Positions 14,500-17,232 of a DNA stretch of 64,000 nt are shown one piece after another. The DNA is from a virus. The stretch is from IMG/VR virus record IMGVR_UViG_3300009008_000003; one strand, 5' to 3'. The position numbers were made by a program, and so were the translations under genes. Numbering within the stretch: the stretch's first letter is position 1; each line of letters begins with the position of its first letter. The notes under the pieces were generated by a model. It saw only the letters and a program-made list of their open reading frames with translations, searched no databases and was not told the origin of the DNA.

Positions 14500-15426
14500 A
14501 TGTCTTATGATGTTGATCCTAAAGTCCTTACTGAGTTATTCTTAACTAAGATGGACACAGACATGGAAAAGACAGCTGCAGAGGCTGGTGCCTTCGTACG
14601 TATGAGATTACGTGAACTTTCGTTCATGCGTAAAATCATGCAACCGGAGTATGTGACCGCAGCGGACTGTCAACGTTCCGTGAACCATGACCAATTGGTC
14701 AAAATCGTGGATAAGGAACCCAATTCAACAGCGCAGGCGTTGAATTTCCGTGGTAAACCAAATGCCAATTATGTAACAGGCGAACGTTACGAGATTTCTT
14801 TCTATATGATCAGCTCGGATGATTTCCAGAAGACCGAGGAAGAATTACTTGCATACGAAATGCCTATTACAGACGTTATCGAAAGAAACTCTGTAAAAGA
14901 TATCCAGAAAATTGAAGACACCAAATTCATGGAAACTATTTCTGGTATTTGCTCAGGGACAGGCGGAAAAGAAGACACAATTGCTGTAGCATCTGGCACA
15001 GCTCTTAATCCTATTCCACCTAGTGTATTTAGACAAGGATTTAACTTGTTAGAAGAAACAAGTGGATCCTCACCTCACTACACTGATTTGATTCTTATGA
15101 ATCAATCCGATTACAATAAACTTATTGAGTGGAACAGTTCTCAGGTTGGCGATTCAATTGCTAACGAGATCACTATCAATGGTTTTACTTACCCAACACT
15201 GTTTGGTAAAAAAGTAATCTCTACCATTAAGGGAGAACTAGTACCAGAAAACGATCTTTACTTCTTCGCTCCAAAAGAATACTTAGGGCACGCTTATATT
15301 CTAGGCGATACTAAATTCTGGATCAAGAAAGAAAAGAATCTAGTCACCTGGGCTGCTTACGAGTTCATTGGTGTAGGTATTGGTAACATTAATGGAGTTG
15401 CAAGAATAACATATTCTGTAACATAA
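14500..15426 (+). CDS. Major capsid protein (HK97-fold, putative)
   Basis: 308 aa, AGGAGG RBS, synteny protease-scaffold-decoration-MCP-terminator; EKTAA near the N-terminus. Confidence 0.75.
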   Translation: MSYDVDPKVLTELFLTKMDTDMEKTAAEAGAFVRMRLRELSFMRKIMQPEYVTAADCQRSVNHDQLVKIVDKEPNSTAQALNFRGKPNANYVTGERYEISFYMISSDDFQKTEEELLAYEMPITDVIERNSVKDIQKIEDTKFMETISGICSGTGGKEDTIAVASGTALNPIPPSVFRQGFNLLEETSGSSPHYTDLILMNQSDYNKLIEWNSSQVGDSIANEITINGFTYPTLFGKKVISTIKGELVPENDLYFFAPKEYLGHAYILGDTKFWIKKEKNLVTWAAYEFIGVGIGNINGVARITYSVT

Positions 15427-15470
15427 TAATAAATCCCCGATCCGTCGGTTTATATACATTCACTCCCTTT

Positions 15471-15500
15471 AAAAACCCCGGGCATATGTCTGGGGTTTTT
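15471..15500 (+). terminator. Rho-independent terminator after MCP (symmetrical, possibly bidirectional)
   Basis: AAAAACCCCGGGC-ATAT-GTCTGGGGTTTTT. Confidence 0.8.
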
Positions 15501-15504
15501 ATGG

Positions 15505-15810
15505 TAAAAATGGAATCCGAGGATTCCTTTTGGTCGCCAACCTAAGCCTTCTGCTACTGAGGCTTACCCGTAGGGCCTTACGGGGAGTGTCCTTAACCTG
15601 CAGGACTAGGTGCCGCCAAAGACGGCAAATGCTGGCGTGCGTATTACTTGCCCCGGCAGTAGCTTTTAATACCGGAGGGTTTGCATGAGTCTAGGTACAT
15701 ACAAACCAATTGTTTTGTTAAACTATGAGGCCTTCCTAGAATACCACATAACCACCGTTTTCATACCTGTCAGCAGCGCAGGTAGAAAATAGCCTAAACT
15801 ATCCTCTATT
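15505..15810 (-). ncRNA. Putative ~300-nt structured RNA of unknown class
   Basis: No ORF; at least seven stems (ACCTG/CAGGT, TCTAGG/CCTAGA, TGCCGTC-TTT-GGCGGCA, GTCCT/AGGAC, CCCGTA/TACGGG, TAAGCCT/AGGCTTA, GGAATC/GATTCC plus T tract). A G-U pair favours the minus strand. Confidence 0.5.
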
Positions 15811-15832
15811 CTTCTTATACCACAAATAGGGT

Positions 15833-15860
15833 AAAAAAGAGCACCTAACTAGCGTGCTCT
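15833..15860 (-). terminator. Rho-independent terminator
   Basis: Minus strand AGAGCAC-GCTAGTTAG-GTGCTCT-TTTTT. Confidence 0.7.
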
Positions 15861-15920
15861 TATACCTGCGCGAAGCCCCCTAACGGCTGGACTCATGCCC
15901 GGGCTCGTTACGGTAATACC

Positions 15921-15953
15921 AAAAAAAAGGGCCAACTATGGAGCTTGGCCCTT
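15921..15953 (-). terminator. Rho-independent terminator
   Basis: Minus strand AAGGGCCAA-GCTCCATAG-TTGGCCCTT plus T tract. Confidence 0.8.
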
Positions 15954-16150
15954 GTCGAGCGCCAGATGGAAGTGGCACTTTCCATGCAGGAAGGTTTCTC
16001 TGTGCAATGAAATATGAAAAGAATAAATTGAACCCAGCCTTTATATGGCTGTTCTCTGCCTAGAGGCGATCTAGGCTTACCGGGACTTAGAGTCGTATAT
16101 GGCCAGTATTCGCGGGGGTCGTTCCCTCTTCCGCTCAACGACTGCTCAAT
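15950..16150 (-). ncRNA. Putative ~200-nt multibranch structured RNA of unknown class
   Basis: Closing stem TTGAGC/GCTCGA; internal stems AGTCGT/ACGACT enclosing GCGG-GGG/CCC-CCGC, GCCTAGA/TCTAGGC, AGCC/GGCT, ATGGAA/TTCCAT; followed directly by a terminator. Confidence 0.5.
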
Positions 16151-16181
16151 CTATTCCTATTGTTTATAAAAACTAATCAAC

Positions 16182-16211
16182 AAAAAAAAGAACCGCCCGT
16201 TAAGGCGGTTC
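16182..16211 (-). terminator. Rho-independent terminator
   Basis: Minus strand GAACCGCC-TTAACG-GGCGGTTC plus T8. Confidence 0.8.
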
Positions 16212-16364
16212 ATAGGAGTACTTAAAGCAACGAATCCACAATCAGAAACCAGCAGATCAACGAGCGAAGAGGCAAACGGTTAAGAGGTACAAGAAAAGGA
16301 TCTTATATGTATGGAAAAGACGTCATGTATAACCTGTTTTACATACTTCTTATACCATAAAACC

Positions 16365-16393
16365 TTGACTTTTGTACCCCATTTTTGTATATT
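16365..16393 (+). promoter_or_regulatory. Sigma70-type promoter for hsp20
   Basis: TTGACT-17 nt-TATATT. Confidence 0.65.
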
Positions 16394-16502
16394 ATATGTG
16401 TACTGTGGTTTTCATGGTTGCCTCCTTTCGGTTTGAGGGTCTCGTTGGTGGGGCCCTCTTTCACTTTCGTAAAGTGTGAATAAATAATAAGTTAAGGAAA
16501 TT

Positions 16503-16923
16503 ATGAGTGAATTATTAACAGTTGGCTATTGTTCAATTACTTACCCAGACACCAACCCGATGAAGCCCCGGACGGATCATACAGAAGGATGGAAATGGGA
16601 ACCTATAAATGCTACGGATTACTATACTGCAAGTTATCCCTGCGCTCATGAATTGGTCGAAACAAATGAATCCTTCAAAATATGGGTTAAATTACCCGGC
16701 TATCAAAAAAAAGGACATTAAGGTAAATTGCGATGGCGAATCGATTGAAATTAAGGGCGAAGTTAAATTCCCATGGGGAAGTGAAGATACCCTTAACCTC
16801 CAACTTCGCCTTACTTCTCACGTATCGAGGAAAGAAGTAAAAGCAGAACTAACCGACGGGATTTTATACATAGTCCTACCTAAGGTCCCAGAAGACAGAC
16901 CACATTCGGTCACCATTAAATAA
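16503..16923 (+). CDS. Small heat-shock protein (Hsp20/alpha-crystallin), split by a 1-nt frameshift at A8 run 16705-16712
   Basis: Frame 1 gives LVETNESFKIWVKLPGYQKK; frame 2 gives KDIKVNCDGESIEIKGE...KAELTDGILYIVLPK...SVTIK. Removing one A restores LPGYQKKDIKV. Confidence 0.8.
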
Positions 16924-16945
16924 GCCTTAATTGACTTTTACAAGG

Positions 16946-16970
16946 AGCCTCGCGATTGCGGGGCTTTTTT
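16946..16970 (+). terminator. Rho-independent terminator after hsp20
   Basis: AGCCTCGC-GATT-GCGGGGCT-TTTTT. Confidence 0.75.
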
Positions 16971-16976
16971 GTAGGT

Positions 16977-17002
16977 AAAAAAAATCGGCCCTTAAGCCGA
17001 TT
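16977..17002 (-). terminator. Rho-independent terminator for the 16992-17186 gene
   Basis: Minus strand AATCGGC-TTAAGG-GCCGATT plus T tract. Confidence 0.7.
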
Positions 17003-17186
17003 CATATTTTTTAGTTTTCTCTCGACCTCGAACTATTTCATGTCCGAGTTCACAGCGAACTACTGGAGTGAACATGCACTTAGTGCCGTTGTGCTCCTCT
17101 GGAACATGGTCATGCTCACATTTTAGGTAGCTAGCACATCCTCTCTGTAAACATTCGGGACACAGCAACGCAGTTTGGATAGTCAT
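16992..17186 (-). CDS. Small Cys/His-rich (Zn-ribbon-like) protein
   Basis: CPEC, CEHDH, CELGH; AAGGAGG RBS. Confidence 0.65.
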   Translation of the reverse strand: MTIQTALLCPECLQRGCASYLKCEHDHVPEEHNGTKCMFTPVVRCELGHEIVRGREKTKKYESA

Positions 17187-17232
17187 AGTACCTCCTTTAT
17201 ACTACTATTCTTATACCCTATTTCTTCTTATA

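Follow-up and report, generated by a model that had tools for sequence, protein, structure and literature searches.

To our knowledge, few stand-alone non-coding RNA genes have been described in virulent phages, and almost none of them with a function. Phage T4 has two stable RNAs, C and D, which sit in its tRNA cluster, are processed from the precursor of that cluster, and have no assigned function. The locus that we describe here would also be a case of small RNAs in a large tRNA-encoding phage; but here the RNAs are only predicted, they are about 55 kb away from the tRNA cluster, and they have terminators of their own. We label its four segments A to D.

In Pseudomonas phages, transcriptomics has identified the non-coding RNAs ncRNA1 and ncRNA2 of PAK_P3, and a number of RNAs derived from 5′UTRs in phiKZ, all with function unassigned (PMC10914365). 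Like the units reported here, these RNAs are short (about 100-200 nt), they come from large virulent phages, and they do not belong to any Rfam family. On the other hand, they have been detected experimentally and they result mostly from UTR processing (PMC10914365), while the units here are predicted. The units here are also different in being clustered, antisense to the late operon, and stand-alone, with their own promoter and terminator. We would place them within this general kind of small phage RNAs, as predicted RNAs with orphan sequences.

Two other comparisons are informative. Unit A resembles the trans-acting sRNAs of bacteria and prophages that end in a Rho-independent terminator (Hfq/ProQ type, for instance DicF and IsrK) in having its own promoter, a seed-like single-stranded body, a GC-rich terminator and a U8 tail, and it is by this architecture alone that A would belong with them. 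Phage morons, in turn, are cassettes of promoter, ORF and terminator placed between late genes; they have the same insertion logic and use the same promoter and terminator parts, and intact examples are found 0.9 kb away and in relatives. A to D differ from them in lacking an ORF and codon periodicity, and B to D also in their high GC content and folding.

The gap behind the capsid gene

The window (the whole stretch of 64,000 nucleotides that was analyzed) corresponds to bases 32869-96868 of the genome of an uncultured phage, which is complete, 189,182 bp long, and has direct terminal repeats. All positions are window positions unless preceded by "genome" or by the name of a related locus. 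The product of the capsid gene matches the solved Gp27 major capsid protein (PDB 6wkk, E-value 3.9e-5, residues 68-303), and has more than 1,100 metagenomic homologues; the protein search also returned three near-identical contigs (P0001), one of them of 189,633 bp, and one contig of 136,612 bp with 83% identity (P0002). The gene is part of a plus-strand late block, which a crude gene map places at genome 19-72.5 kb. The RNA genes encoded by the phage, about 22 tRNAs and a tmRNA, are all on the minus strand, at genome 104-121 kb.

The capsid gene stops at 15426, and the plus strand has no further real gene until 16503. The gap of 1,076 bp in between (15427-16502) is the longest one without a credible ORF in this genome, of which about 90% is coding. 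The predicted non-coding units in the gap are on the minus strand, that is, opposite to the late structural operon. A replication origin was considered for this place and rejected: the cumulative GC skew follows the transcription blocks, with no turning point at genome 48-49 kb. The features of the region are the following, where L002 is the closest available relative, with 79-85% capsid identity.

14500-15426, plus strand: major capsid protein gene; weak PHROG major-head match, and match to the solved Gp27.
15500-15470, bidirectional: terminator closing the capsid gene (3′ end); its 16-nt palindromic arm pair has an A-run and a T-run as flanks; conserved in L002.
15527-15505, bidirectional: terminator at the 3′ end of unit D; reported on both strands by the terminator scan; conserved in L002.
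15505-15808, minus strand: unit D, a predicted RNA of about 300 nt (start at about 15807), with promoter P_D upstream, a terminator downstream, and no ORF bearing a Shine-Dalgarno (SD) site.
15811-15826, minus strand: putative promoter P_D, TTTGTGGTATAAGAAG; -10 hexamer at 15819-15814; PWM score 31.4 bits, 16.2 for the flanks only.
15860-15833, minus strand: terminator of segment C; hairpin and T-run.
15833-15920, minus strand: segment C, 88 nt; a small GC-rich hairpin cluster plus its terminator (15860-15833), with a non-promoter copy of GGTATAAGA.
15951-15921, minus strand: terminator of segment B; hairpin and T8.
15921-16181, minus strand: segment B, about 260 nt; a multibranch domain, two hairpins and a T8 terminator; promoter not recognizable.
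16211-16182, minus strand: terminator of unit A; 9-bp stem (16211-16190) and T8 (16189-16182).
16182-16343, minus strand: unit A, a predicted RNA of about 160 nt (start at about 16342), with P_A upstream, a terminator, and no ORF.
16346-16361, minus strand: putative promoter P_A, TTTATGGTATAAGAAG; -10 hexamer at 16354-16349; PWM score 26.4 bits, 11.2 for the flanks only.
16365-16393, plus strand: divergent sigma70-type promoter TTGACT-17-TATATT, upstream of the hsp20-like gene.

An earlier interpretation of this DNA, made by inspecting the letters alone (hereafter the sequence-only reading), had claimed that the region has no credible ORF, and three different measures applied to 15427-16502 agree with it. 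None of the ORFs of at least 15 amino acids in the gap has both a Shine-Dalgarno site and a hexamer score resembling that of coding sequence (their scores per codon go from -0.39 to +0.40, compared to 0.63 ± 0.11 for real genes). The six longest ORFs, scanned individually, have no Pfam match. And the period-3 signal of the gap is 0.41, where coding sequence has a median of 6.8 and its 5th percentile is 3.0. A moron cassette has a protein-coding ORF between its promoter and its terminator; for units A to D there is none.

The same reading had divided the region by four intrinsic terminators on the minus strand. We find all four where it placed them, and we add a fifth, bidirectional, at 15500-15470, which is also the final stop for minus-strand transcription. 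This terminator and the one at 15527-15505 additionally serve the capsid gene. A terminator scan of the region 14-18 kb reports 12 sites, compared to 3.3 ± 2.0 in shuffled sequences, and genome-wide (189 kb) there are only 38 minus-strand terminator candidates, three of them here within 360 bp. The internal hairpins of the A to D stretch carry T6-T8 tails.

The promoters proposed for A and D belong to a class that is found throughout the genome. The motif GGTATAAGA has 6 copies in the window where 0.7 are expected, and genome-wide it is strand-biased, with 17 minus-strand copies and 2 plus-strand copies. It usually appears within TGGTATAAG, preceded by an AT-rich stretch, as an extended -10 type promoter class, and most copies of the class are 36-60 nt upstream of the SD and ATG of minus-strand genes (early or middle block). 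Using a PWM built from 22 genome sites outside the gap region, both P_A (motif copy at 16357) and P_D are in the top 0.005% of positions, with the P_D copy (15822) in the top 0.002% of genome positions; the mean flank score of the class is 10.2. Only these two copies in the gap, in front of A and D (26.4 and 31.4 bits), have promoter-like flanks; a third copy of GGTATAAGA, at 15866-15858, is not a promoter, as its flank score is -25 and it overlaps a terminator stem. Upstream of B and C, the best PWM matches only reach the 99.5-99.7th percentile (99.5th for B), which is the level expected by chance. The same 25-nt string of P_A is present in the relatives G002 and G003 (54% capsid identity), where it drives an ORF of about 60 amino acids followed by a terminator.

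A stand-alone sRNA gene is expected to have a promoter, and a terminator with no ORF in between. A and D have all of these elements, while B and C do not have the promoter. Where three to four independently terminated RNAs had been proposed, there are then two promoter-to-terminator units, A and D, and two segments, B and C, with terminators but without a recognizable promoter. The lengths change little, to about 160, 260, 90 and 300 nt for A, B, C and D, from the proposed 170, 230, 90 and 300.

Predicted folds of the four segments and the search for homologues

The best-structured piece is B, which sits behind a strong terminator and has no recognizable promoter. Its predicted fold has a multibranch domain (16158-16019), in which a 15-bp closing helix with three G·U pairs leads to a junction of four hairpins. 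Including its terminator, B has a folding z-score of -4.7 to -4.9 on the minus strand vs. -1.8 on the plus strand. Without the terminator, the core has a z-score of -4.16 on the minus strand vs. -0.82 on the plus strand, and the G·U pairs are needed; because of this dependence, the helices of B work only as minus-strand RNA. As controls, the phage tmRNA has a z-score of -4.4, and 24 random coding windows have a mean of -0.8 (standard deviation 1.3, minimum -3.4). These computed folds strongly suggest that B is a genuinely structured, strand-specific candidate RNA, with a fold strength comparable to that of the phage tmRNA.

For unit D, the predicted fold has a hairpin in its 5′ part and a multibranch domain in its 3′ part, and the GC content is 0.49. 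Its z-score is -3.0 on the minus strand vs. -1.2 on the plus strand with the terminator, and -1.9 without it, values that are inside the tail of the coding controls. The fold is suggestive, and D is probably a structured RNA. Segment C has a z-score of -1.8, but its body alone has -0.07, and it is probably just a terminator or a spacer. The 129-nt body of unit A is pyrimidine-rich and unstructured (z-score +0.8), with a GC content of 0.395 that equals the background.

The sequence-only reading had described the whole region as structured RNAs with GC content well above the background. This description is accurate for the GC content of the bodies of B, C and D (0.49-0.63, where the genome has 0.39 and intergenic DNA 0.395) but not for that of the body of A. 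As for structure, it applies clearly to B and moderately to D; the body of A is unstructured, and C is hardly more than its terminator.

We have also looked for known families. A comparison to the Rfam covariance models, which the sequence-only reading had put forward as a check, matched no family. There is no match in the gap at the gathering thresholds of Rfam 15, which includes RNase P RNA, 6S, pRNA, GOLLD, ROOL, OLE, riboswitches and ribozymes, and with E-values up to 10 the region 15000-17200 reports only sub-threshold, terminator-driven matches (the best with 31 bits vs. 52 required). None of them is to RNase P RNA, and an RNase P-like identity of D is rejected for this reason. ARAGORN finds no tRNA or tmRNA in the gap. 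There are also no tandem direct repeats of about 28-37 nt there, of the kind found in CRISPR, RNA anti-CRISPRs or ToxI-like type III antitoxins; the only direct repeats in the gap are the promoter strings and the T-runs. All of these scans bear out the earlier remark that the region has no tRNA, tmRNA or CRISPR hallmarks.

The search for homologues of A to D gave none by blastn against INPHARED, none among 76 family loci, and none in scans of IMG/VR and GTDB genomes for exact 21-27-mer patterns. Within the phage genome itself, a search for paralogues or antisense targets of A to D reports only chance matches of 10-17 nt. A covariance model of the B domain matches only itself in its own genome, and has no match in any of 50 records of related phages, of which 11 have a completeness of 90% or more. 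As none of these searches gives a homologue, A to D have no support from conservation or covariation.

Possible non-coding RNA genes, or decayed cassettes

The related loci tell us about the place where these units are found. Across 65 of them, the post-capsid gap is usually 100-220 bp long and has a single plus-strand terminator, which makes this phage an outlier. L002 keeps both flanks of the gap: next to the capsid gene, its tandem terminators, and at the far end the sigma70-type promoter together with the first 34 nt or so of its leader, which are 100% identical. The sequence enclosed by these flanks in L002 is an unrelated one of about 220 nt with a degenerate promoter, GGCATAAG, and weak structure (z-score -1.1), and when this unit is aligned to A to D, only the shared terminator aligns. 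The differences suggest, from this sequence comparison, a rapid turnover of the content of the slot. In another relative, the same post-capsid slot has a truncated reading frame similar to GIY-YIG homing endonucleases (L085:1560-1680). Based on the content of L002 and on this remnant, the post-capsid slot appears to be an insertion hot spot with fast turnover.

The reading that we favor, to which we give about an even chance, is that of lineage-specific non-coding RNA genes with promoters of the early type, inserted antisense in the post-capsid hot spot. A viral small-RNA locus, as originally proposed, continues to be the best description, with A and D as complete units and with the fold of B, but it is not a homogeneous array of structured RNAs. 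The particular roles put forward in the sequence-only reading (sponge, anti-defence or packaging RNA) gain no direct support from the analysis. The RNA-gene view is supported by the presence of a further ORF-less unit (genome 10063-9874), and by the many RNA genes on the same strand.

According to this proposal, an insert of 1.1 kb would have arrived at the usual slot for accessory genes, after the capsid-gene terminator, and the host RNA polymerase would transcribe A and D early in infection. Unit A may be built as a trans-acting, base-pairing sRNA, with a single-stranded CU-rich body followed by a terminator hairpin and a U8 tail, and its CCUCUU and CCUUUUCUU would be complementary to purine-rich ribosome-binding sites. 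An RNA duplex scan of unit A against all translation-initiation regions of the phage was indistinguishable from that of shuffled A. D and B, as structured RNAs, would more plausibly bind proteins, acting as decoys or as scaffolds. B and C could be produced by read-through of the terminator that precedes them (for B, that of A), by processing, or from a promoter of a type that we do not recognize. The stacked terminators would keep antisense transcription out of the capsid gene.

The alternative that survives best, although we judge it somewhat unlikely, is that the units are decayed promoter-ORF-terminator cassettes which have lost their ORFs, such that any RNAs are by-products and the remnants only insulate the capsid gene from antisense transcription. 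The first 45 nt or so of unit A align with the 5′ UTR of the G003 cassette, with the Shine-Dalgarno site of A degraded and with the ORF of about 60 amino acids behind the same promoter string in G003; and the body of A has background GC content and no structure. An intact cassette also exists nearby (a 64-aa ORF at 17186-16992, with the promoter at 17217 and the terminator at 17003-16982), and decay agrees with the content turnover between the window and L002 and with the slot being an insertion hot spot, as seen in the GIY-YIG remnant of L085. Other observations speak against decay. The GC content of B, C and D is 10-24 points above that of both coding and intergenic DNA, and the strand-specific fold of B equals that of the tmRNA control, a fold that decay would not create. 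A residual period-3 signal and a coding score are both absent, and the two promoters are still perfect members of the consensus.

At the opposite extreme, B, and possibly also D and the similar unit at genome 10063-9874, could be the founders of new classes of structured phage RNAs, expressed early from host-type promoters, and acting as protein decoys (for instance against a factor of the host for defence or RNA binding). We regard this more ambitious proposal as unlikely; if true, together with the tRNAs and the tmRNA it would make for an unusually RNA-rich virus.

The locus makes precise predictions, namely where transcription starts (two sites), where the RNAs end (four 3′ ends), and a single fold that is well defined. 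Expression of the units would make them new phage RNA families, and also an example of early RNA genes that lie antisense within a late operon. Without expression, the locus would be an instance of accessory cassettes decaying into terminator stacks at a post-capsid hot spot.

Could all of this be one long structured RNA of the GOLLD or ROOL kind, either B-C-D (about 680 nt) or all of A to D, in which what we call terminators are structural hairpins? The joint folds are indeed stronger than those of the parts (z-score -4.5 for C+D; -5.0 for B+C+D, compared to -2.4 on the plus strand), and long-range helices between C and D are predicted. But the complementarity of C and D is not above that of shuffled sequences (P 0.36), as is the case for pairing between units in general; the internal hairpins have the T6-T8 tails that are typical of real terminators; a perfect promoter would lie inside the supposed RNA; and there is no Rfam match to GOLLD, ROOL, OLE or any other family. 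A single long RNA is therefore improbable.

It is even less probable that the function lies in very small peptides, from micro-ORFs shorter than 15 codons: examples are one of 7 codons where unit A starts and one of 13 codons in D, but none has a Shine-Dalgarno site in a phage that uses strong AGGAGG-type sites, and none is conserved in L002. Finally, we give the least credit to a DNA-level element (a replication origin, a packaging site or a cruciform), which the large non-coding region with many inverted repeats could bring to mind, since there are no iterons or direct-repeat arrays, the T-runs of the hairpins are one-sided, the helices of B need G·U pairs and work only as minus-strand RNA, and the direct terminal repeats that form the ends of the genome lie elsewhere.

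Other observations in the genome and next to the gap

We describe here several observations made along with the analysis. At genome 9874-10077 (L024:9874-10077, minus strand) there is a TGGTATAAG promoter followed by an ORF-less, GC-rich predicted RNA of about 190 nt (10063 to 9874) and a T8 terminator. This unit has z-scores of -3.5 (minus strand) and -2.3 (plus strand), and an Rfam search with E-values up to 1 reports nothing beyond noise. A second stretch, at genome 121040-121534 (L027:5541-6035, minus strand), is located just upstream of the tmRNA, and it has a TGGTATAAG promoter, about 270 nt without ORFs, and an internal consensus sigma70 promoter. Next to it, L027:5473-5544 has an extra tRNA-like match (42 bits) that appears only under permissive filters. 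And an intergenic segment of 160 nt at genome 173114-173273 is predicted to fold very strongly (z-score -8.4 for the minus strand, -5.6 for the plus strand).

The intact antisense cassette at 16982-17217 (minus strand) consists of a GGGTATAAGA promoter, an AGGAGG site, the 64-aa ORF, which is rich in Cys and His, and an intrinsic terminator. It is flanked by plus-strand late genes. The ORF (17186-16992) has no match in Pfam or in PHROG.

On the capsid side of the gap, L002 has a 12-base C/G homopolymer between its two capsid terminators (L002:5000-5012), possibly a variable tract, or possibly an artefact of the assembly. On the other side, the leader is fully conserved with L002 from about 16400, even though the capsid protein is only 79-85% identical and the first downstream gene is different. 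The leader includes CCUCCUUUC, which looks like an anti-Shine-Dalgarno sequence; the opposite strand reads as a perfect SD and ATG with an ORF of 6-7 codons. A terminator-like hairpin at 16435-16458 (plus strand) differs in sequence from that of L002 and keeps its shape. Such a leader could act in attenuation or in the control of translation.

In the gene that follows, an HSP20/alpha-crystallin gene at 16503-16923 (plus strand), the frame changes by one base at an A8 run (16705-16712), which splits the gene into two ORFs that overlap (16503-16721 and 16609-16923). The first of these has KLPGYQKK as its end, and the second continues with KKDIKV into the crystallin domain (Pfam HSP20, E-value 4e-8). 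Possible explanations of the split are an error of sequencing, a slippery site, or a pseudogene. In L002, the HSP20 is intact, with 129 amino acids, and its gene is preceded by a cupin gene of the mannose-6-phosphate isomerase type.
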